DNA of 64,000 nt. Origin: Myxococcota bacterium. Its GTDB lineage: Bacteria; Myxococcota_A; UBA9042; PHBI01; JAWLBL01. Position 1 is the first letter of the stretch, and every line of letters starts with the position of its first letter. Position numbers and translations under genes: made by a program. The stretch is from the NCBI GenBank assembly GCA_041687695.1, contig JAWLBL010000004.1:32001-96000 (forward strand). The letters are read 5' to 3'. This document shows, piece after piece, positions 20,055-34,361 of the stretch. The notes under the pieces are model-generated. The model searched no databases, had not been told where the DNA came from, and saw nothing but the letters and a program-made list of their open reading frames with translations.

Positions 20055-21680
20055 TCACCGCCAGGGACCGCACCAGCGTGGCGGCTCGATGGGCTCGTCC
20101 CCCGGGCGCCACGCCGCATGGAGCACGCCCTCGCCGCCGTCGTCCGGGGTCAGGACGGCCAGCGCGACGGCCCGCCCGGGGAGGACCGCCGCGATGGGCC
20201 CGCGCCAGGTCTCCTCATGCCCGTCGAGGGTCAGCGCGGCCACGAGGTCGCCGCCCTCGACCGTCAGCCGCGCCGAGGACAGGTCCGCTGCCGCCGCGCA
20301 GCCCGCCTCGGCCCGCCAGGCGGCGCGATCGGTCGCCTGCCCGTCCTCGCCGAGCCCCAGCGCCAGCCAGCGGCTCTCCGGGCCGCCCGCGCCCATCCTG
20401 ACGCCGTGTAGCTCGTACGCGGCGCCGAGCCTGCGGTCCGCCTCGGCGACGTCGGGCCGCCGGAGGGCGATGGCGACCCCGACCCGCTGCCAGCCGGCGA
20501 CGCCCGTCGGCCGCTCGCGCATCCAGATCATGGCGTCGCGGCTCGCGTCGACCCAGCCCCACCAACGCTCGGTCGCCGTGACGAGCTGCAGGTCCGCGTA
20601 CGGGTGCGCGATGAGCGGCAGGCACCCCGGGCCCGGCCCGGCGCCCTCGCCGATGAACGCCGCGCACGCGCCCGCCGCGTCGTCGCGCACCTCGAGCTCG
20701 CCCCGGCCGACCGTGATCGACCCGCCCGGCGCGTCGGCGTCTCCGACCGTCACCACCGACCACACGCCCGGACGGGGCGACCCGGGAGCCGCCGCCCGCC
20801 GGATCTGCACCAGCTGCCGGCCTTCCAAGCCCGCGGTGCCGAGCACCAGGCTCTCGTCGGAGACGAGCGGCGCGATGGTGGTGGTCCCGGTCATCGCGAC
20901 GTCGAGGTGGAGCCGGTCCGCCGCCAGCGCGATGCCGTGCTCCTTCGGGACGCCCACGACCGTCCCGTCGGGCGCCCAGAGGGTCACCCAGACCGGCCCC
21001 TCGGCGTCGGCGGCCCAGGTCAGCGCGGTCCACGTGGGGGCGCCGTCGACCTCGCGCACCCGCCACCAGAGCCCCGCCCAGCCCCCGGTGAGGCCCTCCC
21101 AGCTCGGGCGCGAGACCGCCTCGCAGCCGAGCAAGGGGTCGACACACACGCCGCGCTCGGCGGGCGAGGCCTCGCAGACGTCGACGATCTCGGACGGGCA
21201 CGCGGCGCCGCTCCCGTCACAGAAGGCCGCAGCCCAGGTGCCCTCGTCGAGGCAGCTCGGCGCCGTGCAGAACGTCCCCGCCGGGGCGATCGTCTCGCGG
21301 CACACCCCGCCGTCGCAGACGCCCACGCGGCAGGCGTCGAGCGCGTCGAGGTGCGCGCAGCCGCAGCGCTCGCCGTCGAAGCAGGCGCCTTCGGACGGCG
21401 CGTTGACGCAGCTCGCCGACGCGAGGTCGCAGCGGTCCTCGGTGCAGGGGAGGCCGTCGTCGCAGGCGGGATCGGCGAGCGAGGTGCAGGCGATCTCCGG
21501 GACGCAGACGCCGGGGGACGAGGCCGTCGGGGCCACGCCGCCGCTCCAGCAGCGCCAGCCGGCGCAGTCGTCCTCGGTGATGCAATGGTAGGCCGCGGCG
21601 GCGTCGAGCGGCGGCGGCGAGAGGCAGCCGGCCGCGGCGCCCAGCGGTAGCGCGAGCAGGAGCAGGCGGATCGGCGTCAT
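20055..21680 (-). CDS. Cys-rich lipoprotein with CDDGxPCTEDRC repeat and beta-rich C-terminus (541 aa)
   Basis: MTPIRLLLLALPLGAAAG-C lipobox; ATG overlaps the upstream stop (ATGA at 21677-21680); CDDGLPCTEDRC. Confidence 0.75.
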   Translation of the reverse strand: MTPIRLLLLALPLGAAAGCLSPPPLDAAAAYHCITEDDCAGWRCWSGGVAPTASSPGVCVPEIACTSLADPACDDGLPCTEDRCDLASASCVNAPSEGACFDGERCGCAHLDALDACRVGVCDGGVCRETIAPAGTFCTAPSCLDEGTWAAAFCDGSGAACPSEIVDVCEASPAERGVCVDPLLGCEAVSRPSWEGLTGGWAGLWWRVREVDGAPTWTALTWAADAEGPVWVTLWAPDGTVVGVPKEHGIALAADRLHLDVAMTGTTTIAPLVSDESLVLGTAGLEGRQLVQIRRAAAPGSPRPGVWSVVTVGDADAPGGSITVGRGELEVRDDAAGACAAFIGEGAGPGPGCLPLIAHPYADLQLVTATERWWGWVDASRDAMIWMRERPTGVAGWQRVGVAIALRRPDVAEADRRLGAAYELHGVRMGAGGPESRWLALGLGEDGQATDRAAWRAEAGCAAAADLSSARLTVEGGDLVAALTLDGHEETWRGPIAAVLPGRAVALAVLTPDDGGEGVLHAAWRPGDEPIEPPRWCGPWR

Positions 21681-23440
21681 GGCAGGCACCAGCTGTCGGG
21701 GTCCTCGCCGATGGGCGCGAGGTGGGGCTCGGCGCCGGGCGGGCGCCAGACGAGGAGCGCGGGGCCGCGGAGGGCGGCGTCGAGGGCCCCGGTGTGGAGG
21801 TTCAGGCCATTGACCCGCGTGCCGACCCAGAGCGGCGAGGCGCCGTCGAGGGCGGCGAGGCCGGGGAGGGCGGAGCCGGCATAGGTGAGGCGGGTGAAGT
21901 CGGTGCCCGCGAAGGGCGGGGAGGCCGCGGCGTCGACCAGCGGCACGTCGAGCGTGCCCGGCAGGCCCGTGTCGAAGGCGGGGCGCACGCGGAAGCGCTC
22001 GCGGGTCGGGCCGTCTGGGAGGCAGGCGTAGGTGTCGGGGAGCCGGTCGAGCGCGCCGCTGGCGACGTCTCCGTGGGCGTCGAAGGTGAGCTGCCCGCGG
22101 AAGTGGCTCCTCGGGCCGTGGGCGCCCGCGATCGCCGCTGCGGAGTGGATGGCGTCGTGGAGGGCGAGCGTCGCGTAGCGTCCGACGAGGGCGCCCTCCG
22201 GGGCGGCGACGCGCACGAGGAGCACGAGCCCGTGGACGTCCGAGCGCTCGCCTCCGTCGGGCTCGCTCGCCACGGTCGCGACGGCGAGGTCCCCGCCGGC
22301 GCCGAGCGTGCCCTCGAGGTGCAGCGAGGCGAACCCCGGCGAGCCCGAGAAGCGGAAGCGGAGGGGCCCCGCGAAGGCGCCCGTCTCCGAGGTGGCGAGG
22401 CAGTGGGGGCCGGCGGTGAGGAGGTAGGCGTCGTCGGTCCAGCTCGCGACGCGATCGTCGAGGCCGCTGCACGCGCCCTCGGGCGACGGTGACAGATCGA
22501 TCTCGCCGACCCAGGTGCCGACTTCGCCCACGTGGCCGAAGAGGACGCCGGGGTGCCAGGCGGGGAGCGTCCAGGTCAGGAGGACGGCCCAGCGGCCTGC
22601 GAGGGCGTCCGGCGCCAGCGGCTCGGCCGGCGCTCGGAGGAGCACCTGGAGGCCGGAGTGGCGCACCGGGACGCCGACGAGGACCCGCGCGTCGGGCGTC
22701 ATGGTCGCGAGCCAGTCGCTGCCGAGGAAGTCGAGCTCGAAGGCGCCGGGGTCGCCCTCGTACAGCGGCGGGTCGAGCTGGGTCTTCGACGCGCCCGTCT
22801 CGTCGACGCGGGTGGTGAGCGCCATCTTGCCGTCCTGGAAGATGACCTCGCGCCGCTCGAACCGCCACGCGTCCTCGTCGACGCCGGCCATGCGCCGCAG
22901 CTCGGCCCCGCGCCAGATCTCGGGCGCCTCGCCGCCGGGGAGCTGACACGCCGCGGTCAGCGCGGGCAGGGCCAGGCAGCGCGCACCGTCCGCCGAGCAG
23001 TGGCGCGCCTCACACGCGGTGATCTCGCCGCCGCACGGCTCCGGCGCCGCCGCCACGCAGACGCCACCCTCGGCGCACGCCCCGGCCGGCGTGTGGACGC
23101 CGTCGACGCAGCGGGGCTCGCCGCACGGCGTCCCGGCCGCGACCGGCTCGGCGCGGCAGCCGACCTCCGGGTCGCAGAGGCCGACGAGGCAGCCCGCCGG
23201 ATCGTCGAGCGCCGCGCAGTCGACGCACGCGCCCTCGACCGGGCACCCGCGGCCGATCGGCGTGTTCACACAGACCTGGCGCTCGTCGCACCGGTCCTCC
23301 GTGCACGCGAGGCCGTCGTCGCAGGTCTCGTCCTGCTTGCACTCGAGCGCCGCCACGGCGGGCGCCGGGCCGGCGGGGTCGCCGCACGCCGCGAGCACAC
23401 ACAGCGTCGCCACGCAGCCTCCCAGGCTGTCGCGTCTCAT
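21677..23440 (-). CDS. Cys-rich lipoprotein with CDDGxACTEDRC repeat, similar architecture to the downstream gene (587 aa)
   Basis: GGAGGAGGG RBS; MRRDSLGGCVATLCVLAA-C lipobox; CDDGLACTEDRC; AGTPCGEPRC resembles AGTFCTAPSC in the neighbour. Confidence 0.78.
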   Translation of the reverse strand: MRRDSLGGCVATLCVLAACGDPAGPAPAVAALECKQDETCDDGLACTEDRCDERQVCVNTPIGRGCPVEGACVDCAALDDPAGCLVGLCDPEVGCRAEPVAAGTPCGEPRCVDGVHTPAGACAEGGVCVAAAPEPCGGEITACEARHCSADGARCLALPALTAACQLPGGEAPEIWRGAELRRMAGVDEDAWRFERREVIFQDGKMALTTRVDETGASKTQLDPPLYEGDPGAFELDFLGSDWLATMTPDARVLVGVPVRHSGLQVLLRAPAEPLAPDALAGRWAVLLTWTLPAWHPGVLFGHVGEVGTWVGEIDLSPSPEGACSGLDDRVASWTDDAYLLTAGPHCLATSETGAFAGPLRFRFSGSPGFASLHLEGTLGAGGDLAVATVASEPDGGERSDVHGLVLLVRVAAPEGALVGRYATLALHDAIHSAAAIAGAHGPRSHFRGQLTFDAHGDVASGALDRLPDTYACLPDGPTRERFRVRPAFDTGLPGTLDVPLVDAAASPPFAGTDFTRLTYAGSALPGLAALDGASPLWVGTRVNGLNLHTGALDAALRGPALLVWRPPGAEPHLAPIGEDPDSWCLP

Positions 23441-23490
23441 CGCCCTCCTCCGGGTGAACGTCTTCGGGGACCCTACCGCACCCGCGTCGC

Positions 23491-23506
23491 AGCAGGAATC
23501 GTGCCA
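23491..23506 (-). promoter_or_regulatory. Sigma-54 (-24/-12) promoter of the lipoprotein pair
   Basis: Minus strand TGGCACGATTCCTGCT with GG-N10-GC spacing, 50 bp upstream of ATG 23440. Confidence 0.8.
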
Positions 23507-23550
23507 CGGCCCGGATTGGCCTCCGTCGGCGACTCCGGTAGGTTCGCCCC

Positions 23551-25095
23551 ATGGCCACCACCGACTCGCCACAGGAGGACGCCGCCGCGCCGCTCGTCGG
23601 CCGGACGCTCGGGGAGTTCGCGATCACGGGCGCGCTCGGCCGCGGCGGCATGGGCTGCGTCTACCGCGCGACCCAGGCCTCCACCCGCCGCGAGGTCGCC
23701 CTCAAGGTCATCCACCCGCACCTCGTCGGCCCGGCGCTCGTCGCCCGCTTCGCCCGCGAGGCCGCGGCCCTCGGGCGCCTCGCGCACCCGAACATCGTGA
23801 CCATCCACACCCACGGCGAGCACGACGGCGTCCTCTTCCTCGCCATGGAGCGCGTCGACGGCCCGACCCTCGGCGCTCTCCTTGCCTGCGAGGGCCCCCT
23901 CGCCTCGGACCGCGCCCGCGGGCTCTTCGCCCAACTCGCCGAGGCGCTCGCCCACGCCCACGCCGCCGGCGTCGTCCACCGCGACCTCAAGCCCGGCAAC
24001 GTCCTCATCGGCGCGACCCTCGCCGGCGCGCTGCCCAAGATCGTCGACTTCGGCCTCGCCAAGCTCGCCGACGAGGGCGGCCAGCTCACCCAGTCCGGGC
24101 GCGTCATGGGCTCGGCCGCCACCATGTCCCCCGAGCAGTGGCAGGACGCGCGCGCCATCGACGGCGCGACCGACGTCTACTCCCTCGGCTGCATGATGTA
24201 CGAGGCGCTCACCGGGGTGCCGCCCTTCGCCGCGTCCTCGCCGGTCGGCTACATGCGCGCCCACCTCGGCCCCCGCCCGGTCGACCCGGCGCACCACCGC
24301 CCCGAGCTGGCCGGCGACCCGCTCGTCGGCTGGGTGCGCGCCTGCCTCGAGCGCGATCCCGCCGCGCGCCCCACCGCCGAGGCGCTCTGGCGCGGCCTCT
24401 CCGGCGAGCGCCCGTCCCCCGCCCCGGAGCCCACCCGCGGCAGCGACTGGTCCGCCCCCGACGCCGGCACGCTCCCCGGCGACGACGACCTCTGGGCGGG
24501 CGACCCTTGGAGCGGCGGGACCTCCCCGCCCGCCGACCGGCCCGACGCCCCTCGGCGCCGCTCTCCCTGGCCCTTCGCCTTCGCCCTCCTTGCGCTCGCC
24601 GGCGCGGCCGGCTTTGGCTGGGCCGCCATCCGCCCCCCGCCGCTCGGGGCCACGCCCGCCCCTCCGCCCGCGCCTCCCGAGGCGCCCCTCGCCGTCCTCT
24701 CCGAGCCGGACGTCCTCACGCCGCTGGCCGCCGAGGGCGACGCCGTCCCCACCGAGCCCGACGCCTCGCCCCCGGCCGCCGCCGTCCCCGTCCGCGTCAC
24801 CGCCTGGCCGACCCGCGCCACCGTCTCGCTCGACGGGCGCCCGCTCCCCCGCGAGGCCGATGGCTCGGTGACGCTCGACGTCCCCGCCGACGGCGAGGCC
24901 ACCGTCGCGGTCGCCGCCCCCGGCTTCGCCCCGGCCGAGCACGCCCTCGACGCCGCCGCCGCCCGCGCCCTCCCGGACGGCGCGCTCGTCGTGCGGCTCC
25001 GCCCCCTCCGTGACCGCCCGCGGCCGCCCCGCCCCGACGCCGGCGCGACCGACCGGCCGCCGCGGCTCGACCTCGAGCGCCTCGAGATCCGCTGA
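23551..25095 (+). CDS. Membrane Ser/Thr protein kinase (Hanks type) with TM and PEGA-like C-terminus
   Basis: LGRGGMGCVY, VALK, HRDLKPGN, DFG, SPEQ, DVYSLG; TM WPFAFALLALAGAAGFGW; VTAWPTRATVSLDG. Confidence 0.93.
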   Translation: MATTDSPQEDAAAPLVGRTLGEFAITGALGRGGMGCVYRATQASTRREVALKVIHPHLVGPALVARFAREAAALGRLAHPNIVTIHTHGEHDGVLFLAMERVDGPTLGALLACEGPLASDRARGLFAQLAEALAHAHAAGVVHRDLKPGNVLIGATLAGALPKIVDFGLAKLADEGGQLTQSGRVMGSAATMSPEQWQDARAIDGATDVYSLGCMMYEALTGVPPFAASSPVGYMRAHLGPRPVDPAHHRPELAGDPLVGWVRACLERDPAARPTAEALWRGLSGERPSPAPEPTRGSDWSAPDAGTLPGDDDLWAGDPWSGGTSPPADRPDAPRRRSPWPFAFALLALAGAAGFGWAAIRPPPLGATPAPPPAPPEAPLAVLSEPDVLTPLAAEGDAVPTEPDASPPAAAVPVRVTAWPTRATVSLDGRPLPREADGSVTLDVPADGEATVAVAAPGFAPAEHALDAAAARALPDGALVVRLRPLRDRPRPPRPDAGATDRPPRLDLERLEIR

Positions 25096-25151: not shown

Positions 25152-26132
25152 ATGCGACCCCTCCTGCCCGCCCTCACGCTCGTCGTGGCCTCCGCCCCTG
25201 GCGTCTACGCGGCCGAAGCCCCGTCGCCCGACGCCGCCATCGCCGCCTTCAACCGAGCGGTCGACGCGGCCCTCGCGCACCGCGAGGCCGGCCGGCACGA
25301 GGCCGCCCTCGAGGCGCTCGAGGAGGCCCTGCGCGCCATCCGGGACAGCTCCGGCCCGGAGTTCGACCGGGGCCGGAGCCGCGTCCGGTACTACACGGCC
25401 TTGACGCTCGTCGCCCTCGCGCGGCTCGCCGAGGCGGAGGCGCTCCTCGACCTCCTCGCGAGCGGGCCCGGCCTGACGGCGGCCGAGCGCGAGGTGGTGC
25501 AAGCGCGGCTCGGCGAGGTGCGGGCCGAGCTCGCCGCGGCGCGTGAGGCGGCGCCCGGCCGGGTCGAGATCATCGCGCTCGACGAAGCGGGGCGCTCGGT
25601 CCCGGCCGCCGCGCGCATCGACGGGCGGGACGTCGGCACGACGCCGCTCGACGCCGAGGTCGCCCCGGGCGAGCACCTCATCGAGCTCTCGGGCGCGGAT
25701 CTCCGCCTGGCGCAGCAGACCTTCGTCGTGGCGCCGGGGTCGAGCGGCCGCCTCGTCGTGCGCGTGAAGGCCGTCGAGGTGGCGCCGACCTTCGATCCGC
25801 CCGCGGCGTCCTGGTGGCTCACCGGCGGGGGCGTCGTCGCGCTCGGGGCCGCGGCCGCGCTCCACCTGTCCGGGCTCGACGATGACGAGCGGGCGCGCGA
25901 CGGCTCGCGCACGACGCGCAGCGAGGCGTCCGGGCTCTTCGCCGCGGCCGAGACCAAGGTCTACGGCGCCTATGGGCTCTACGCGGTCGGCGGCGGGCTC
26001 GTCGTCGGCGGCGTCGCGTGGATGCTGACGGACGGGTGGGACGGGGCCGCCGAGGGGCGCGCGTCGGTCCTGTCCGAGGTGGACGTCGGCCTCGACCCGA
26101 GCGGGTCCCTTCACGTGAGCGGCAGGTTCTGA
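25152..26132 (+). CDS. Secreted TPR + PEGA domain protein with hydrophobic C-terminal segments
   Basis: Signal peptide, helical TPR-like region, PEGA motif IDGRDVGTTPL..VAPGEHLIEL, C-terminal Gly-rich hydrophobic helices and ..VSGRF end. Confidence 0.8.
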   Translation: MRPLLPALTLVVASAPGVYAAEAPSPDAAIAAFNRAVDAALAHREAGRHEAALEALEEALRAIRDSSGPEFDRGRSRVRYYTALTLVALARLAEAEALLDLLASGPGLTAAEREVVQARLGEVRAELAAAREAAPGRVEIIALDEAGRSVPAAARIDGRDVGTTPLDAEVAPGEHLIELSGADLRLAQQTFVVAPGSSGRLVVRVKAVEVAPTFDPPAASWWLTGGGVVALGAAAALHLSGLDDDERARDGSRTTRSEASGLFAAAETKVYGAYGLYAVGGGLVVGGVAWMLTDGWDGAAEGRASVLSEVDVGLDPSGSLHVSGRF

Positions 26133-26134
26133 CG

Positions 26135-27571
26135 GTGGGTGACGAGACGACCGGGATGAGCCTCGACGAGGGCTGGCTGGCCGACGCCGACGCCGCGGAC
26201 GCCGAGGGCTGGGGCCTCGTCATCGCGTGGTCCTTCGAAGAGCCCGGCCGCGTCGGCGAGGTCGCGTGGATCCCCGACCGCGGCGCCGTCCGGGTGCTCG
26301 GCCGCGGCGCCGAGGCCCCCGAGGGCGGCGGCCTCCGCCTCGACTGGATGCGCCAGCGGCCGGGCCGCAACGTGCCGACCGCTCCCCTCGCCGCGCGGCG
26401 CATCTCGCGGGCCCAGCTCGAGCTCGAGCCGCGCCCCTCCGGCCTCCGCGTCCGCAGCGTCGGGCGCTGCCCGATGGCCGTCAACGGCAGCCCCACCGAC
26501 GAGGCCGTGCTCCGCGACGGCGACACGGTGCACCTCAGGAACCAGCTGCTCCTCCTCGTCACCCGCCGCCCGGCGCGCCTCCCCGCGGCAGGCAGCTGGC
26601 CCTCCGGGAGCACCCCCGCCTTCGGTCACGCGGACCCGCTCGGCATGGTCGGCGAGGGCCCGGCGACCTGGCGCCTCCGCGAGCGCCTCGGCTTCCTCGC
26701 GCCCCGCCCCGCGCACGTCCTCGTCATCGGCCCGTCCGGCGTCGGCAAAGAGCTCGCCGCCCGCGCGCTCCACGCGCTCAGCCCCCGCGCCGCCCGCCCC
26801 CTCGTGTCCCGAAACGCCGCCACCTTCCCGCCCGGCCTCATCGACGCCGAGCTCTTCGGCAACCCGCGCGACTACCCGAACCCAGGCATGCGCGAGCGGC
26901 GCGGCCTCGTCGGCGAGGCCGACGGCGGGACGCTCTTCCTCGACGAGATCGGCGAGCTCCCCGAGGACCTCCAGGCGCACCTCCTCCGCGTCCTCGACCA
27001 CGGCGGCGAGTACCAACGCCTCGGCGAGTCCCACGCCCGCCGCGCCGACCTCCGCCTCATCGTGGCGACCAACCGCGGCCTCGACGGCCTCAAGCACGAC
27101 CTCGCCGCCCGCCTCGCGCTGCGCCTCGAGCTCGACGGCCTCGACGCTCGCCGAGACGACATCCCGCTCCTCGCGCGCCACATCCTCGCCGCGACCGCCG
27201 CGGCCGACCCCGCCATCGGCCGCCGCTTCTTCGAGGGCTGGGGCACCCCCGCCGCCACCGCGCGCGTCGCCCCGGACCTCATGGACCTCCTCGTGCGCCA
27301 CCGCTACAGCCACCACGTCCGCGAGCTGCACGGCCTCCTCTGGCGCGCCATGAGCACGAGCGCCGGCGGCGTGCTCAAGGCGACCCCCGAGGTCCGCGCC
27401 GAGCTCGACACCGGCGCCGCCGACGCGCGCGAGCCCGAGTCCGTCACCGCCGACGACATCCGCGCCGCGCTCGCCGCCGCCGACGGGAACCGCACCCACG
27501 CCGCCGCCGCCCTCGGCCTCAAGAACCGCGACGTCCTCTACCGGCTGATGAAGAAGCTCGACGTCGCCTGA
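26135..27571 (+). CDS. FHA-like domain + sigma-54-interaction AAA+ + HTH regulator with non-canonical L1 loop
   Basis: GTG start 2 bp after the previous stop (alternative ATG 26156). FHA-like LGRG..ISRAQL..VNG..LRDGDTV; GPSGVGKE; ELFGNPRDYPNPG (no GAFTGA); LFLDEIGE; HHVREL; HTH NRTHAAAALGLKNRDVLYRLMKK. Confidence 0.88.
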   Translation: MGDETTGMSLDEGWLADADAADAEGWGLVIAWSFEEPGRVGEVAWIPDRGAVRVLGRGAEAPEGGGLRLDWMRQRPGRNVPTAPLAARRISRAQLELEPRPSGLRVRSVGRCPMAVNGSPTDEAVLRDGDTVHLRNQLLLLVTRRPARLPAAGSWPSGSTPAFGHADPLGMVGEGPATWRLRERLGFLAPRPAHVLVIGPSGVGKELAARALHALSPRAARPLVSRNAATFPPGLIDAELFGNPRDYPNPGMRERRGLVGEADGGTLFLDEIGELPEDLQAHLLRVLDHGGEYQRLGESHARRADLRLIVATNRGLDGLKHDLAARLALRLELDGLDARRDDIPLLARHILAATAAADPAIGRRFFEGWGTPAATARVAPDLMDLLVRHRYSHHVRELHGLLWRAMSTSAGGVLKATPEVRAELDTGAADAREPESVTADDIRAALAAADGNRTHAAAALGLKNRDVLYRLMKKLDVA

Positions 27572-27573
27572 GC

Positions 27574-29472
27574 TCACCCCACCTGCGCGAGCAGGGCCGA
27601 GATGCGCGCGCGCAGCTTGGCGCTCTGGATGGGGCTCGCCAGCATCGCCTCGAGCGCCGGGACGAGCAGCGCGCCGTGCTCGGGCACGGTGGCGAAGGCG
27701 CCGAGGAGATCGCCGAAGGTCTTCTCCTCGAAGCCACCGAGGACGACGTGGGCGACGATGGCCTCGACGTCCTCGGCCGTGAGGCCGGCGGTGGTCATCG
27801 ACTGCAGGGTCTCGCGCCGGACGAGCGGGTGCGCGTCGCCGAGCAGGCTGCGGAGGGCGGCCCTGGCCTCGCCCGAGCCGAGCTTTCGGAGGGCGGCGGC
27901 GACCGCGGCGCGGACGTCGGGGTCGGGGTGGTCGATGCGGGCGAGCAGGGTGGGCAGGTGCTCGGGGAGGCCGGCGTTGCCGAGGCTGCGGAGGAGCTCG
28001 GCCGCTTCCGCGGGGGTCTCGGCGTCGTCGAGCCGAGCGAGCAGCGGCGCGAGCTCGCGCTGGGCGGCGTCCGCGTCCCCGGCGCGGTAGAGGGCGCCGG
28101 CCGTGGCGCCGAGGGTGTAGGCGGCGGCGTTCTTCACGTGCGGCGCGTCGGCGGTCTGCCAGGTCTCGCGCGCGAAGGCGACGGTCGCAGGCTCGGGGCG
28201 TGTGACGAGGGAGAGGCGCTGGACGTGCAGCAGGTAGGCAGGGTCGTCGCGGGAGATGTCGGCGCCGAGGATGGCGCGCAGGGCGGCCTGGGCCTCGGCG
28301 TGGCCGGCGCTGGCGAGGAGGTCGAGCACGAGGGCGCGGCCGCTGGAGGTGAGGTCGCCCGAGAGCGCGAGGTCGGCGAGGGCGTCCGCGAGGCTCGGGT
28401 CGAGCCGCAGGAGCCCGGTCGCGCGCCAGAGCCAGCGGGCGTGGTCGGGGGCGGTGCCGCCGGCGTAGCGGGCGAGGTCGGCGAGGAGCTGCGGGCCGGT
28501 GAGGCCGGCGGCGCGGTTCACGAGGAGCTGGTGCGCGGAGGCGCGCGGGGCGGCGGCGGCCTGGCGGCGCGGGCGGAGCGGCTGGAGGTCGCGGGCCGAG
28601 ACGCGGCGGCTGGGGACGGGCTCGACGCGGTCGAGGTGGAGGGCGAGGGTGCCGTCGTGCGCGAAGGCCTGGCGGCCGTCGGCGCCCTGGTGGCGGACGG
28701 ACTCGCTCCGGTCGAGGGCGCGGAGGAAGCCGCGGCGGTCGAGGACGACCTCGTCCTGGCCGGTGACGGTGAGGTCGGACGGGGCGGCGGACGGGGCGGC
28801 CGTGAGCGAGAGGTAGGCCTCGGTCGTGCGCGCGAGGGCGACGCGGGAGGCGTCGGCGGTCGCGAGGCGGGTCGCGACGCGGCGGCGGCCGAGGGAGGTG
28901 TCCTCTTCGGTGAGCCAGGCGTCGGCCGCGTCGCGCCCGTCGGGGACGACGACCTGGGCGTCGGCGAGCAGCGCGCTGGCGAGGTGCTGGAAGAGCGGTG
29001 TGGTCTCCTCGCGGAAGAGGACGCGGACGAGGCGGCCGTCGGCGGCGTACTCGGCGACGGCCTCGCCGGCGAGGAGGGTCCGCGCCGTGGCGAGGTCGGG
29101 GAAGAGGGGCTGGCCCAGGAGGTCGAAGCGGGGGGCGCCGGTCGGCTCGAGGCGCACGGCGACGCGGTGGACCGGGCCTTCGGCGCCGACGCCTTCGAGG
29201 CGGAGCCGGCCCTGGAGGTCGGCGCGGCCGGCGAGGGTGAGCCCGCCCGACGCGCGGGTGTCGGCGGTCAGGTGGAAGCGGTAGACGAGCCGCTCGCCCG
29301 CCGGGAAGGCCCAGCGGAACGGGGCGTCAGCGGCGGTGTGTGCGCCGGGGGCGGCCGGCGGGGCGACCGAAGCGCTCGGCTCCGGCGCCCCGCCGAGGGG
29401 GACGAGGTGGGACAGCAGGATGGCGGTGAGGGCGATGAGGCCCGCACCCGCGGAGAGCTTCACAAGGCGCAT
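27574..29472 (-). CDS. HEAT-repeat protein with N-terminal beta domain, vitellogenin/MTP N-terminal (LLT)-like
   Basis: GAGGAG RBS; N-terminal signal/anchor; about 250 aa beta-rich region; helical repeats LVLDLLASAGHAEAQAAL, LLRSLGNAG, DPDVRAAVAAAL, HPLVRRE. Confidence 0.65.
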   Translation of the reverse strand: MRLVKLSAGAGLIALTAILLSHLVPLGGAPEPSASVAPPAAPGAHTAADAPFRWAFPAGERLVYRFHLTADTRASGGLTLAGRADLQGRLRLEGVGAEGPVHRVAVRLEPTGAPRFDLLGQPLFPDLATARTLLAGEAVAEYAADGRLVRVLFREETTPLFQHLASALLADAQVVVPDGRDAADAWLTEEDTSLGRRRVATRLATADASRVALARTTEAYLSLTAAPSAAPSDLTVTGQDEVVLDRRGFLRALDRSESVRHQGADGRQAFAHDGTLALHLDRVEPVPSRRVSARDLQPLRPRRQAAAAPRASAHQLLVNRAAGLTGPQLLADLARYAGGTAPDHARWLWRATGLLRLDPSLADALADLALSGDLTSSGRALVLDLLASAGHAEAQAALRAILGADISRDDPAYLLHVQRLSLVTRPEPATVAFARETWQTADAPHVKNAAAYTLGATAGALYRAGDADAAQRELAPLLARLDDAETPAEAAELLRSLGNAGLPEHLPTLLARIDHPDPDVRAAVAAALRKLGSGEARAALRSLLGDAHPLVRRETLQSMTTAGLTAEDVEAIVAHVVLGGFEEKTFGDLLGAFATVPEHGALLVPALEAMLASPIQSAKLRARISALLAQVG

Positions 29473-29504
29473 CGTGTCGTCTCCTCGTCGTCGTCAGGGG
29501 AGGG

Positions 29505-32111
29505 TCAGCCGCAGTCCACGATGGTGCCGCAGGCGTCCTGGAGGACCTCGAGCGGCAGCCTGAAGCCGGCGTCGAAGAGAGCCCAGGAGCGCGTGAAGCC
29601 CGGCCACTGCACGAGGGTCTTCTCGACCTCGTTCCAGAGCGCCTCGGCGTACACCTTGATGTGCCCGGACAGCGTGCGGAGCTCGAGCCGCCCCGAGACG
29701 GAGGCGTCGAGCTCGTGGGTGCCCGTCGTCCCCGAGCGGCGCACGGTCACCCGGGCGTCGAGCGGGAGCGCCGCCTCGAGCAGCGTGAGGCGGCTCTTGA
29801 CGCCCACCTCGAGGACCAGGAAGTCGACGGCGGCCTCGGCGAAGCCTGCGATGCCCGCGAAGGGCTCGAACGCGCTGTCGAGCGTGAGCCTGACGGTCCC
29901 GCCCTGCGTCGTGCAGCGGCTGGCCTCGGCTTCGAGCGCGTAGCGCACCCCGACCTGGCCCGACAGGCCGCCGACGAGGCGCACCGGGACGCCGAGGATG
30001 GGGATGGTGGTGTTGAAGATCTCCTGGCGATGGGTCTCCGTCGGCTCGTCGGAGGCGCGGACGACGCTGAAGCTCGCCCCCTTGCTCCAGAGCTGCTTGT
30101 CGCCACCGGTGTAGACGTCGTCGCCGAACAGGCGGAAGCGCACCTTGGCCGAGCCGAGGCCGTCCATGTCGAGGTCGGCCGTCATCAACGGGTAGTCGTC
30201 GCCGAACGCGGTCACGTGCGCGTCGAACGAGGCCTCCGTCTCGATCTGCGTCTGGCAGATGTTGGCGGCGTAGCCCGACACGTTCCAGCGCGAGTCATAC
30301 CCGTACGACACGGCGAAGTAGTCGTTCCCTGCGCTCCGGGACTCTCCCGCGCTGCCGGCCGTCCGGAGGTCACCCGAGGCGCTGGTGCTCGCCGCGATGG
30401 CCTGCTTGATGTAGCTCTGCCACAGGCTCTTTCGCGTCGCCTCGCAGGCGATGAGCTGGTCGACCGTGACCGTGCTGACGCCGTAATCCCCGTCGGCGCA
30501 CCCGATGGGGCGCGACGTCGGCGGCCAGGCGAAGTGGACCTCTGCGAACGAGAACGACTCGCCCACCGGGAGGGTCGGCGTGATGCTCTCGACCATGGCG
30601 AGGCACTGGTCCCAGGCCTCCTCGCGCGACGCGATCATCTGCCCCATCACGGCCTCGGCGAACAGGCGCGGCGACCAGTCACACGGCCCCGGAGCCGTCC
30701 CGAGGCACCCCTCGGCGTCCGCCGTGAAGATGGCCTCCTCGACGGCGGCCACGGCGGCCTCGGCGTCGGCCTCGAGCTGCGCGCGCGCCGCCGGCTGGCA
30801 GTACCAGGCGCTGCAGGCCGACGGATAGCTGTAGCAGAAGGTGCTGGATGGGCAGAGGTCCGCCTTGTTGCGCAGCTCGACGAGGGGCTTGGCGACATCG
30901 ACGAGGCGCTCGAGCTCACGCTGCTGCTGATCGAAGTAGAGCAGGCGCTCGTCGAGCTCACCGGCCAGGAGCTCCGACATCTGCTTGTGCCAGGCCAGGT
31001 TCTTGGTCGTCCGGATGTCGAGGGCCGGCTGCAGGCGATCCCAACCATTCGGGCGATGCGTGACGCCTCCCCAGGGGGTCTCGACCAGCCGCGGCCTCTC
31101 CTCGAGCGCGTGCATCACGACGTCCGGAATCGCGAAGAACGCGTTCTTGGCCGTCCCGTACGTCGCCTGCTTCAGCTGCGGCGCCGCGGTCCCCCTCTTG
31201 GTGTAGAGCCCCGTGCCGTAGACCGTGCGGCTCGCCACCGAGTGCTTCAGGTACTTGCTGCCCCACGCGAGGTCGTAGATGGCCCGCCAGTCCTCGCCCA
31301 GGTTCCGCGCGCGGTACTCGAACTCGCTGTAATCGAAGTGCTTCTCGTAGCTGTACTCGGCGCAGTCCGCGACCCGGTAGAAGTTGCCGTACCACGGCTG
31401 GCGCGCCGCGGCGGACCCGACGATGGCCCAGAGCGACCCATCCCCGAGGGTCGACTCGGTCACGGCGCCGGCCGGCGTCTCGGTGAGGGCGTCGGCGGTC
31501 TCCCACGAGCCGTCGACCGGCGTGACCACCCCGCTGGCGTTCACCAGCGACGTCCGCAGCACCGGGCGCGTGCCGGACAGGTTCTGGAGCTGGGTCGCCC
31601 GGTCCTGCGCCATCGCCTCGAGGCCCACGTTGCACGTGTGCTGCGGGTCTCCGCTGGCCGCCGCGATGGCGGCCTCGCCGCAGGCCGAGTCGAGAAAGTC
31701 ACCGTCGGCGCACTCTCCGGCCGTGAGGCGCGCGCAGGCCCCGCACGACCCGGCGGCCCGCTGGGCGCACAGGCTGTCCCAGCGCGTGTTGCAGCAGAAC
31801 GGATCGGCCTGGCAGACACACGCCTGGACGGCCGCGTCGAGGCAGCCCGTGACGGTGGTCGCCTCCGAGCACGTGTACCCGCAGTAGCCGCCCGACCGCG
31901 CCGCGTTGGCGCAGATGCCGTCCCAGCGCGTGCTGCAGCAGTAGGCATCGGCCGCGCAGATCTCGGCCTCGGTGGTGGGGTTGGTGCAACCGGGCGCGTC
32001 GCCGGCGACGCAGCACGGACCCTCCACGGCCGCGAGTGCCGGCAGGGAGACCAGCGCCGACGCGATGAGCGCGAGCGCGGCCCAAGAGTGTCGTATCCCT
32101 CTTCCTCTCAT
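29505..32111 (-). CDS. Secreted protein with two CxxDxxCCxxRWDxxCA repeats and a beta-sheet C-terminal domain (868 aa)
   Basis: GGAGGAG RBS; signal peptide ..PALA; ICAADAYCCSTRWDGICA and VCQADPFCCNTRWDSLCA; C-terminal amphipathic strands including TTIPILGVPVRLVGGLSG. Confidence 0.8.
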   Translation of the reverse strand: MRGRGIRHSWAALALIASALVSLPALAAVEGPCCVAGDAPGCTNPTTEAEICAADAYCCSTRWDGICANAARSGGYCGYTCSEATTVTGCLDAAVQACVCQADPFCCNTRWDSLCAQRAAGSCGACARLTAGECADGDFLDSACGEAAIAAASGDPQHTCNVGLEAMAQDRATQLQNLSGTRPVLRTSLVNASGVVTPVDGSWETADALTETPAGAVTESTLGDGSLWAIVGSAAARQPWYGNFYRVADCAEYSYEKHFDYSEFEYRARNLGEDWRAIYDLAWGSKYLKHSVASRTVYGTGLYTKRGTAAPQLKQATYGTAKNAFFAIPDVVMHALEERPRLVETPWGGVTHRPNGWDRLQPALDIRTTKNLAWHKQMSELLAGELDERLLYFDQQQRELERLVDVAKPLVELRNKADLCPSSTFCYSYPSACSAWYCQPAARAQLEADAEAAVAAVEEAIFTADAEGCLGTAPGPCDWSPRLFAEAVMGQMIASREEAWDQCLAMVESITPTLPVGESFSFAEVHFAWPPTSRPIGCADGDYGVSTVTVDQLIACEATRKSLWQSYIKQAIAASTSASGDLRTAGSAGESRSAGNDYFAVSYGYDSRWNVSGYAANICQTQIETEASFDAHVTAFGDDYPLMTADLDMDGLGSAKVRFRLFGDDVYTGGDKQLWSKGASFSVVRASDEPTETHRQEIFNTTIPILGVPVRLVGGLSGQVGVRYALEAEASRCTTQGGTVRLTLDSAFEPFAGIAGFAEAAVDFLVLEVGVKSRLTLLEAALPLDARVTVRRSGTTGTHELDASVSGRLELRTLSGHIKVYAEALWNEVEKTLVQWPGFTRSWALFDAGFRLPLEVLQDACGTIVDCG

Positions 32112-32165
32112 GGCGTGTGACTCCTCCGTTGGTCGCCGGACGACGCGCCCGGTCCCTCCCGCTAG

Positions 32166-32181
32166 AGCAACCGCCGTGCCG
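32166..32181 (-). promoter_or_regulatory. Sigma-54 (-24/-12) promoter of the 32111-27574 operon
   Basis: Minus strand CGGCACGGCGGTTGCT, GGCACG..TTGCT with GG-N10-GC spacing. Confidence 0.75.
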
Positions 32182-32423: not shown

Positions 32424-32990
32424 ATGACCTGGACCACCGAGCCGGCCTCCGAGCCGCAGCGCCCGCTGAAGCGCACCGAATACGACCAGCTGGTCGCCTC
32501 CGGGGCGTTCACGGACGAGCACGTCGAGCTGATCCACGGGAGGATCCTGCGCACGGGCCCGCAAGGCGACCGACACGCCTGGTGCATCCAGAGGCTGACC
32601 AGGCTGTTCAGGTCGCTCCCCGCCGAGGCCGACCTCCGCGTCCAGAGCCCGTTCGCGGCGTCCGACGACTCGGAGCCCGAGCCGGATCTCGCCGTCGTGG
32701 CGGCTCGAGACGACGACTACGCCCATCCATCGGCTGCCTCCTTGCTCATCGAGGTCTCCGACGACTCGCGTCGACGCGACCTCGGCCTGAAGGCCGACCT
32801 CTACGCCTCCGCCGACGTGCGGGAGTATTGGGTGGTCGACCTGAAGGCCCGCTGCGTCGTCGTCCACCGCGACGCCGATGGCTCCCGATGGACCCAGATC
32901 ACCACCGTCCGCCCCGGCGGCAGCGTGTCACCCGTCGCCTTCCCGGACCTCGTGCTCCCGCTCGACGCCTTCCTCCCCGCCGCGGCATGA
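32424..32990 (+). CDS. Uma2 family PD-(D/E)xK nuclease-fold protein
   Basis: VELIHG, SEPEPDLAVV, LLIEVSDDS..DLGLKADLYA..VREYWVVDL. Confidence 0.9.
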   Translation: MTWTTEPASEPQRPLKRTEYDQLVASGAFTDEHVELIHGRILRTGPQGDRHAWCIQRLTRLFRSLPAEADLRVQSPFAASDDSEPEPDLAVVAARDDDYAHPSAASLLIEVSDDSRRRDLGLKADLYASADVREYWVVDLKARCVVVHRDADGSRWTQITTVRPGGSVSPVAFPDLVLPLDAFLPAAA

Positions 32991-33035: not shown

Positions 33036-34361
33036 TCAGTCCGCGCCGGGGGGGCGGCGCTGCCAGCGGGTGATGAGCAGGGCCGGGACGAGGGTCGCCG
33101 CCGAGAGCCAGGCGAGGATGCGGAAGGCGCCGTCCCAGCCCAGCTCGGTGGCCAGGGCGGCCATGCCGACGCCGCCGAGGACGGCGCTGAAGAGGTAGCC
33201 GATGCCGTCGAGGAGGCCGGCGGCCGCGGCGGCGGCCTGGCGCCCGCCGAAGTCGATGGCGCCGGCGCCGGCGATGAGCGAGTAGGGCCCCATCAGGGTG
33301 AAGCCGACGACGCCGACCAGGACCAGGGCGGTGGTCGGGTCGGCGCCGAGCGGGCCGCCGAGCAGGAAGAGGGCGACGGTCAGCGCGGCCAGGAGCAGGA
33401 CCGAGATGGGGCCGCGGCGCCCCTTGGAGACGTAGTCGCTGTAGAAGCCGGCGAAGAGCGTGCCGGCGATGCCCGCGGCCGGGAAGAGCGAGCTCTTGGC
33501 GAGGGCCGCGCCGGCGTCGTCGCCCAGGCTGAGGAGGTAGCTGGTCGTCCAGGTGAGGAAGGCCAGGCGCAGGCCGGTCAGGCTGATGGAGAGGATGGCG
33601 AGCATCCAGAAGGGGCCGTTGGTCAGCAGGCGCTTGATGACGTCGCCGGTCAGGCCCGCCTCGCGCGGGGGGCCGGCCTCGGCGGCGTCGAGCGGGGGCT
33701 CTCCGACCGTCTCGGGCGCGCTCTTGAGCGTGAACCAGGCGACGCCCGCGAAGACCAGCGTGATGACCGCCGGGACGAAGAAGGCGCCGCGCCAGCCGAA
33801 GCCGGCGTCGACCACCAGGGCCGACAGGTTGCGCGCGACGATGTCGCCGGCCGAGAAGCTGAGGCTGAGCACCGCCATGACGCCACCGACCCGCCAGGTG
33901 GGGTACCACTGGGCGGTGACCTGCACCATGCCGACCCACCCGCCGGCCTGCAAAAAGCGGTTGGCCGACCAGATGACGATGAAGGCCGTCATGCCCCCGA
34001 ACAGGCCGAACAGGGCCGAGAAGAGGGCGGCCCCGAGCAGGCCGACCAGGAACAGGACGCGCCCGCCGACGATGTCGGCCAAAAAGCCGTGGGTGAACTT
34101 GCCGGCCGCGTAGAACCAGGTCGACACGGTGACGACGGAGCCCAGCGCCATGTCGCTCAGGCCCAGATCCCGGCCGATGAGCGGCATCACCGCGTCCAGG
34201 TTCGCGCGGCACAGGTAGTAGGCGACGTAGCCGACGAAGAGCGTCCAGAAGGTCGCGCGGCGCCAGCGCAAGAACCGGGGAGACCGGCGCTCGGCCTCGC
34301 GACGTGGCGGCGGCGGCGAGGGCGCCGCCGGGTTCACCTCGGAGACCGAGCGGGTCGTCAT
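33036..34361 (-). CDS. MFS transporter, organophosphate:Pi antiporter (GlpT/UhpC)-like
   Basis: About 12 TM segments; GYVAYYLCRANL, YAAGKFTHGFLAD, AGFYSD, AAGLLDGIGY, typical of the OPA family. Confidence 0.8.
   Translation of the reverse strand: MTTRSVSEVNPAAPSPPPPRREAERRSPRFLRWRRATFWTLFVGYVAYYLCRANLDAVMPLIGRDLGLSDMALGSVVTVSTWFYAAGKFTHGFLADIVGGRVLFLVGLLGAALFSALFGLFGGMTAFIVIWSANRFLQAGGWVGMVQVTAQWYPTWRVGGVMAVLSLSFSAGDIVARNLSALVVDAGFGWRGAFFVPAVITLVFAGVAWFTLKSAPETVGEPPLDAAEAGPPREAGLTGDVIKRLLTNGPFWMLAILSISLTGLRLAFLTWTTSYLLSLGDDAGAALAKSSLFPAAGIAGTLFAGFYSDYVSKGRRGPISVLLLAALTVALFLLGGPLGADPTTALVLVGVVGFTLMGPYSLIAGAGAIDFGGRQAAAAAAGLLDGIGYLFSAVLGGVGMAALATELGWDGAFRILAWLSAATLVPALLITRWQRRPPGAD

Follow-up and report, generated by a model that had tools for sequence, protein, structure and literature searches.

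Large lipid transfer proteins (LLTPs), a design described in animals, seem to be present in bacteria as two separate chains. This view comes from a gene pair in a 64,000-nucleotide stretch of DNA (the window) from a Myxococcota bacterium, covering positions 32,001 to 96,000 of contig JAWLBL010000004.1 (assembly GCA_041687695.1). The second gene encodes a 632-aa protein (P0002) which is genuinely related to the front half of LLTPs, whilst the first encodes an exported 868-aa partner (P0001) whose C-terminal domain is predicted, from structural models, to have an MTP-like fold. Our best explanation, to which we give a probability of roughly 45%, is that P0002 is a resident large lipid transfer (LLT)-like handler which loads lipid onto P0001 as its client. 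The pair is an LLTP variant and not a plain LLTP, because the architecture is LLTP-like, yet the one-chain and disulfide features are absent. An earlier note on this DNA had proposed that the two genes encode two LLTP-like halves, and fold matches and conserved adjacency bear this out, with weak support for a complex; the open reading frames also have the sizes, positions and order that it gave. All coordinates are positions in the window, and the gene pair lies on the minus strand:

27574-29472, minus: P0002, LLT-module protein, 632 aa, cysteine-free (sequence, model, Foldseek)
29311-29472, minus: residues 1-54, a hydrophobic helix at the N-terminus that probably serves as an uncleaved membrane anchor, then a linker rich in Pro/Ala
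28603-29310, minus: residues 55-290, the N-sheet, which forms half a beta-barrel about a central helix and in which G146 aligns with MTP Gly130
27577-28545, minus: helical solenoid, residues 310-632, containing D384 and N499
29505-32111, minus: P0001, exported partner, 868 aa, with signal peptide, Cys repeats, helical middle domain and MTP-like C/A-sheet domain
32031-32111, minus: cleavable-type signal peptide, residues 1-27, ending ALA (by eye and heuristic)
31740-32030, minus: region of two CC..WD..C cysteine-rich repeats (31911-31940 and 31767-31796)
30387-31739, minus: residues 125-575, the helical middle domain, in which the motifs CxEY, PKN, WH and CDWxP are conserved and a long hairpin of helices is present
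30093-30365, minus: residues 583-673, the C-sheet-like part, made of six amphipathic strands of shorter length (model)
29553-30041, minus: residues 691-853, the A-sheet-like part, made of six amphipathic strands that are long (model)
29520-29552, minus: C-terminal helix of 11 residues, as ends the MTP lipid-binding domain (model; PMC6717300)

The front half

The top 11 rows of a Foldseek search with the P0002 model are all lipovitellin, MTP, apoB or vitellogenin, and a structural alignment (VIA) on lipovitellin 1lsh covers residues 17-624. In the model, strands occupy residues 60-285 and a helix lies at 159-172, in agreement with the beta-rich N-domain and helical solenoid described earlier, and the barrel matches lipovitellin and MTP, which takes the likeness beyond generic HEAT repeats. 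The C-sheet of MTP is contacted by its Asp361 and Asn479 (PMC6717300), and the residues aligned with these in P0002 are D384 (28321-28323) and N499 (27976-27978), respectively. The LGNAG of P0002 aligns with the LGNAG of lipovitellin. The solenoid motifs listed in the earlier note are all present (LVLDLLASAG at 28303-28332, AQAAL at 28279-28293, LLRSLGNAG at 27970-27996), but only the last lies at the coordinates it quoted.

Sequence identity to LLTPs is only 9-14% in the Foldseek rows. P0002 scores 12.4 bits against Pfam PF01347 (Vitellogenin_N), below the 24-bit gathering score, and its strongest Pfam matches are HEAT families; an NCBIfam scan returned only HEAT-like NblB/DVU0298 matches, far under their cut-offs. 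A paralogue in the same genome reaches 24.4 bits to PF01347, which is also matched by nine of 17 relatives at E<=0.1 (best 4.5e-16). When a profile of the N-sheet alone was used, 1lsh ranked first (E 0.039), and Vitellogenin_N was detected in 2/71 N-sheet fragments (best 6.8e-5). Those conserved residues that were found make structural contacts and do not contact lipid. The N-sheet disulfide of MTP (Cys174-Cys194) has no counterpart, as P0002 contains no Cys and none occurs at that profile column.

Across an alignment of 150 front halves, length is uniform (543-688 aa) and a hydrophobic segment is found at the N-terminus in 139. This segment, which is followed by a Pro/Ala-rich linker, ends with AxA in 12, a lipobox in 6 and an aromatic residue in 86 of 141 rows; by contrast, AxA or a lipobox is present in 37 of 51 partners. 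Judged by these segment ends, a crude signal heuristic, the 632-aa chain is likely to be membrane-anchored, and not released as the earlier note had supposed. The family is already auto-named in UniProt, where Myxococcus fulvus/Corallococcus macrosporus homologues (UniRef100 F8CGW2, A0A286SGM0) are labelled 'Vitellogenin domain-containing protein'; the label is automatic, and the partner gene and split design are not covered there. A UniProt-labelled myxobacterial front half is 37% identical to the window gene over residues 29-550. For P0176 no close Myxococcus genome was present in the 301-genome sample (best identity 39%), and the partner in cultured strains was thus not seen.

The partner and its sheet domain

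The last ~290 aa of P0001, where amphipathic beta-strands had been noted before, are modelled as the C-sheet, A-sheet and end helix of MTP. All four Foldseek matches to this model at E<=0.001 are MTP or lipovitellin. Both sheets carry a continuous, one-sided hydrophobic face, P709, of interest for the P-T-x-x-G-x-P motif of vitellogenins, is conserved in 45 of 58 rows, and the motif TTIPILGVPVRLVGGLSG lies at 29958-30011. The C/A-sheet match comes from predicted models; when P0001, A3 and A7 were searched against PDB sequences, no relevant match appeared, and an Atlas feature search with the C-domain gave low scores only (0.75-0.76). A single-sequence search with P0001 residues 160-868 found only P0001 itself, and the C-domain profile found 5 proteins in a word-indexed search; homologues were instead gathered from gene neighbourhoods.

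The part sizes are nearly identical to those of the human MTP large subunit (6I7S, 8EOJ; PF01347 and PF19444), in which the barrel spans residues 21-297, the helices 298-603 and the sheets 604-884 (PMC6717300), compared with 55-290, 310-632 and a ~290-aa partner domain here. The six short and six long strands, the 11-residue end helix and Gly130, Asp361 and Asn479 are likewise kept. Unlike MTP, the bacterial system is split at the helix/sheet boundary into two chains, usually with the back-half gene first; its front half lacks cysteines and carries a likely anchor at the N-terminus, and its back half is fused to passengers. Compared with lipovitellin of lamprey (1LSH) and vitellogenin of the honey-bee (9ENR/9ENS), the models show no large funnel-shaped cavity, there are two chains from two genes, and no vWD domain was matched in P0001 or in 36 partners scanned. 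There is also no beta-belt like that of the apoB-100 beta-alpha1 region (9BD1): the long region of the partner is an N-terminal passenger, whereas that of apoB is a C-terminal lipid belt.

Partner frames span 381 to 3493 aa, and it is the N-terminus, not the C-terminus, that varies. Domains of the LamG, C-type lectin, EGF, RCC1, somatomedin B, cadherin-like, CBM or Cys-repeat types are carried by 15 of the 36 partners scanned, and we infer that the partner is a surface protein with adhesin-like passengers. The sheet domain is internal (>100 residues after it) in 6/74 frames. In two such frames, L082:1802-6475 and L140:630-7217, it is followed by 700 and 1180 aa, respectively, with a propeller and EGF, lectin and FGE-like domains in these trailing regions; L140 has no front half within 4 kb. 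At L086:6148-12500 two tandem sheet-domain genes precede one front half.

The middle domain of P0001 has no Pfam family and no PDB relative in sequence searches. Of its 37 matches in genomes, 36 are in or beside C-domain frames and the other is at a contig end; it is missing from some partners. The CC-x(2-4)-WD-xx-C repeat, which the earlier note had taken for a targeting module, was rejected in that role: it occurs in 24 reading frames of the host genome, in up to four copies each, and in only 3/76 partner proteins. It is probably what the precomputed PF26780 label denotes, because both are shared by P0001 and P0163 and neither is in P0164/P0166.

Pairing and co-inheritance

Adjacency of the two genes is conserved. 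At loci picked by the front half, the back half is also present in 46 of 54, in 43 of these upstream on the same strand, a count which is partly circular because the profile was built from these loci. Where only the back half was used for picking, 20 loci were taken from some 38 such rows, and a front half is present in 16/20, of which 11 are downstream, 4 upstream and 1 on the opposite strand. Where the other gene is missing, two of eight front-half-picked and two of four back-half-picked loci are at or near contig ends.

Up to five pairs occur per genome and three in the host genome. The other host pairs are at 143621-149966 of C23 (L040), where the partner has 1517 aa and several Cys repeats, and at about 7300-12050 of C55 (L139). 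For 66 pairs the trees of the two genes co-vary, with rho 0.64 against a maximum of 0.21 in permutations and nearest neighbours agreeing in 34/66, which shows joint inheritance, not contact.

Same-frame fusion of the halves was seen in none of 93 loci; the front half was not used to search for longer, fused forms, and its aligned members all fall within the length range given above. Front-then-back order as adjacent genes was found in five of 74 loci tallied. Loci with the front half first include L130, L131, L132, L138 and L077, of which the first four have ~145 further residues after the sheet domain and L077 is broken by stops. At L045 and L124 (G121:C23) the front and back genes share contig and strand but are about 11 kb apart, which suggests an insertion between them.

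A handler and its client

The complex prediction for the two chains gave a median of 0.48 (0.18, 0.48, 0.82) against 0.00 for the best of 3 controls, with partner pLDDT of at least 46 and contact agreement of at least 35%. Among solved pairs 116 of 157 attained the mark, as did 2 of 215 mismatched pairs, and the weak-support level contains 18 solved pairs and both mismatches. The interface looked for on the earlier note's suggestion thus scores above controls with weak support, and likeness to solved MTP may drive the score. An LLT barrel, conserved adjacency and, with weak support, a predicted interface were found; the lack of any of these had been set beforehand as counting against the proposal.

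MTP's helical domain grips its two sheets from outside, and half of the A-sheet is packed against the barrel (PMC6717300). Without its partner, then, the sheet domain would leave hydrophobic surface uncovered, and the conserved Asp and Asn would serve no purpose in an unpaired front half; the chains are accordingly predicted to dock in trans. The front half (barrel and helical clamp) would then clamp the sheet domain of its own partner and so rebuild the lipid-holding pocket in trans. Situated on the periplasmic face of the inner membrane, it could act as a dedicated resident handler, shielding the hydrophobic face of the partner's sheets and loading lipid onto them, after which the partner would be folded and attached to the envelope. 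A parallel would be MTP in the endoplasmic reticulum lumen, which loads apoB during translocation (PMC6717300). We arrive at handler and client because the front half is constant and likely anchored, and the partner variable and exported; the location, lipid binding and client-handling role are what we infer from this.

The same homology and pairing would suit a stable two-chain lipid carrier, as in the earlier note: a permanent heterodimer that shuttles or scavenges lipid (across the periplasm, onto vesicles or from prey), with passengers as targeting modules. The Atlas clusters include Myxococcota and Bdellovibrionota, which are predators, and a GlpT/PgtP-like transporter gene is nearby. However, the clusters also hold Bacteroidota and Pseudomonadota, the front half looks anchored by the heuristic, and the passengers differ tenfold in size and resemble adhesins; because these are so variable, client handling is a better fit than prey-lipid capture, and we regard a permanent carrier as doubtful. 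Nor is there a tie to sterol-type cyclases. A sterol carrier was rejected as a specific link, as TIGR03463-like cyclases occur in 33/301 genomes, 5/32 front-half genomes and not in the host genome; most of the 33 may be other cyclases, because only 1/33 passes the family cut-off.

It is rather unlikely that the LLT fold is a protein-only clamp, i.e. a chaperone or tether for the sheet domain with a lipid-free pocket. Strict cognate pairing and co-duplication would fit such a clamp, as would the conservation of structural and not lipid contacts. The lipase-specific foldase (Lif) is a membrane-anchored periplasmic helper whose gene lies right behind that of its secreted client, and the anchor-plus-linker layout of the front half recalls it, though no search gave a Lif match. 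The continuous hydrophobic face kept on both sheets argues against a lipid-free pocket, and MTP's own pocket is likewise kept by hydrophobic similarity, not identity (PMC6717300).

Weighing against an MTP-like sheet domain, outer-membrane barrels tie with MTP on VIA Z. The C-domain might then be an autotransporter-like barrel or a pore-forming sheet, with the front half as its chaperone or immunity protein. In type Va autotransporters a passenger is joined to a beta domain of ~300 aa at the C-terminus, whose last residue is aromatic, and the partner offers a signal peptide, passenger, long helix and ~290-aa beta domain with strands of alternating hydrophobicity. The barrel alignments, however, cover only half the domain (109-155 residues) or have a root-mean-square deviation of 15-20 Å over 170-187 residues, and the Foldseek probability is at most 0.16 for barrels and pores, compared with 1.00 for MTP. 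Since the final residue is aromatic in only 9/74 partner frames and the domain is internal in six, and with the variable end N-terminal, we consider a barrel or pore improbable. Finally, mere convergence of a generic HEAT solenoid and generic beta-sheets, for which the HEAT matches and low identity speak, is largely refuted and scarcely credible, as sequence and structure matches span barrel and helices in order, with matching conserved residues, and the neighbouring gene independently matches the remaining MTP domain.

Locus and regulation

The pair is intronless with bacterial genes on either side, in an assembly of 7.97 Mb that is 99% complete; no plasmid match was found, and no sequencing run was listed, which is uninformative about expression. 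Two signals accompany it, and no sigma-70 promoter or intrinsic terminator was found at the locus:

29481-29486, minus: ribosome-binding site GAGGAG, within the 32-bp intergenic gap (a spacing correctly given before)
32166-32181, minus: sigma-54-type -24/-12 site CGGCAC-N5-TTGCT, 54 nt before the ATG of the 868-aa gene

The sigma-54-type site is the only match in the window (0.06 expected), although 6/100 shuffles also contain one; the whole genome has 36 strict sites. It is a plausible promoter, present where the earlier note had placed it but not conserved across the family. Sigma-54 control as a feature of the system was ruled out, with the motif upstream of only 2/61 partner genes (background 28/3220 windows).

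A sigma-54-activator-like AAA+ protein is encoded at 26018-27571 (plus strand), its stop codon 2 bp from that of the 632-aa gene. The GAFTGA loop is a motif of sigma-54 activators, and this protein may be unable to activate sigma-54 because DYPNPG stands at the place expected for it. Upstream of the AAA+ gene are a Ser/Thr kinase (23551-25095) and a TPR/PEGA protein (25152-26132), and two tandem Cys-rich exported or lipoprotein-like genes lie at 20055-23572 (minus), one with a Dicty_CTDC repeat and no other family. Upstream of the pair on the same strand are a GlpT/PgtP/UhpC-like major facilitator superfamily transporter (33036-34361, minus) and a CehA/McbA-family metallohydrolase (34369 to about 37998, minus), separated from it by a Uma2 endonuclease gene (32424-32990, plus).

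Origin and meaning

LLTPs are described as animal lipid transporters with an emergence linked to multicellularity (PMC12214520), and MTP has been called their oldest member (PMC6717300). Literature searches of titles and abstract openings, from which subscription journals were largely absent, found no papers on bacterial LLTPs, and the main text of PMC6791001, on bacterial homologues of lipid transfer proteins, was without vitellogenin, MTP or 'large lipid'.

With MTP size and contact residues in a widespread bacterial two-chain version, the fold would have originated outside eukaryotes. This agrees with reports of other membrane genes having been acquired by eukaryotes from Myxococcota (PMC13392464). 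We raise tentatively, as something probably not so, that animal LLTPs descend from the split periplasmic system, with MTP, vitellogenin and apoB arising from a front-then-back gene fusion. An anchored bacterial LLT clamp would on that view already load lipid onto the beta-sheets of a secreted client, and the MTP-apoB relationship and the lipoprotein particle would predate eukaryotes. The question is testable in cultured Myxococcus and Corallococcus strains which carry the front half. For the bacteria themselves, the system points to a hitherto undescribed means by which large surface proteins may be handled or anchored, in which a C-terminal lipid-binding tag would be served by a cognate clamp.
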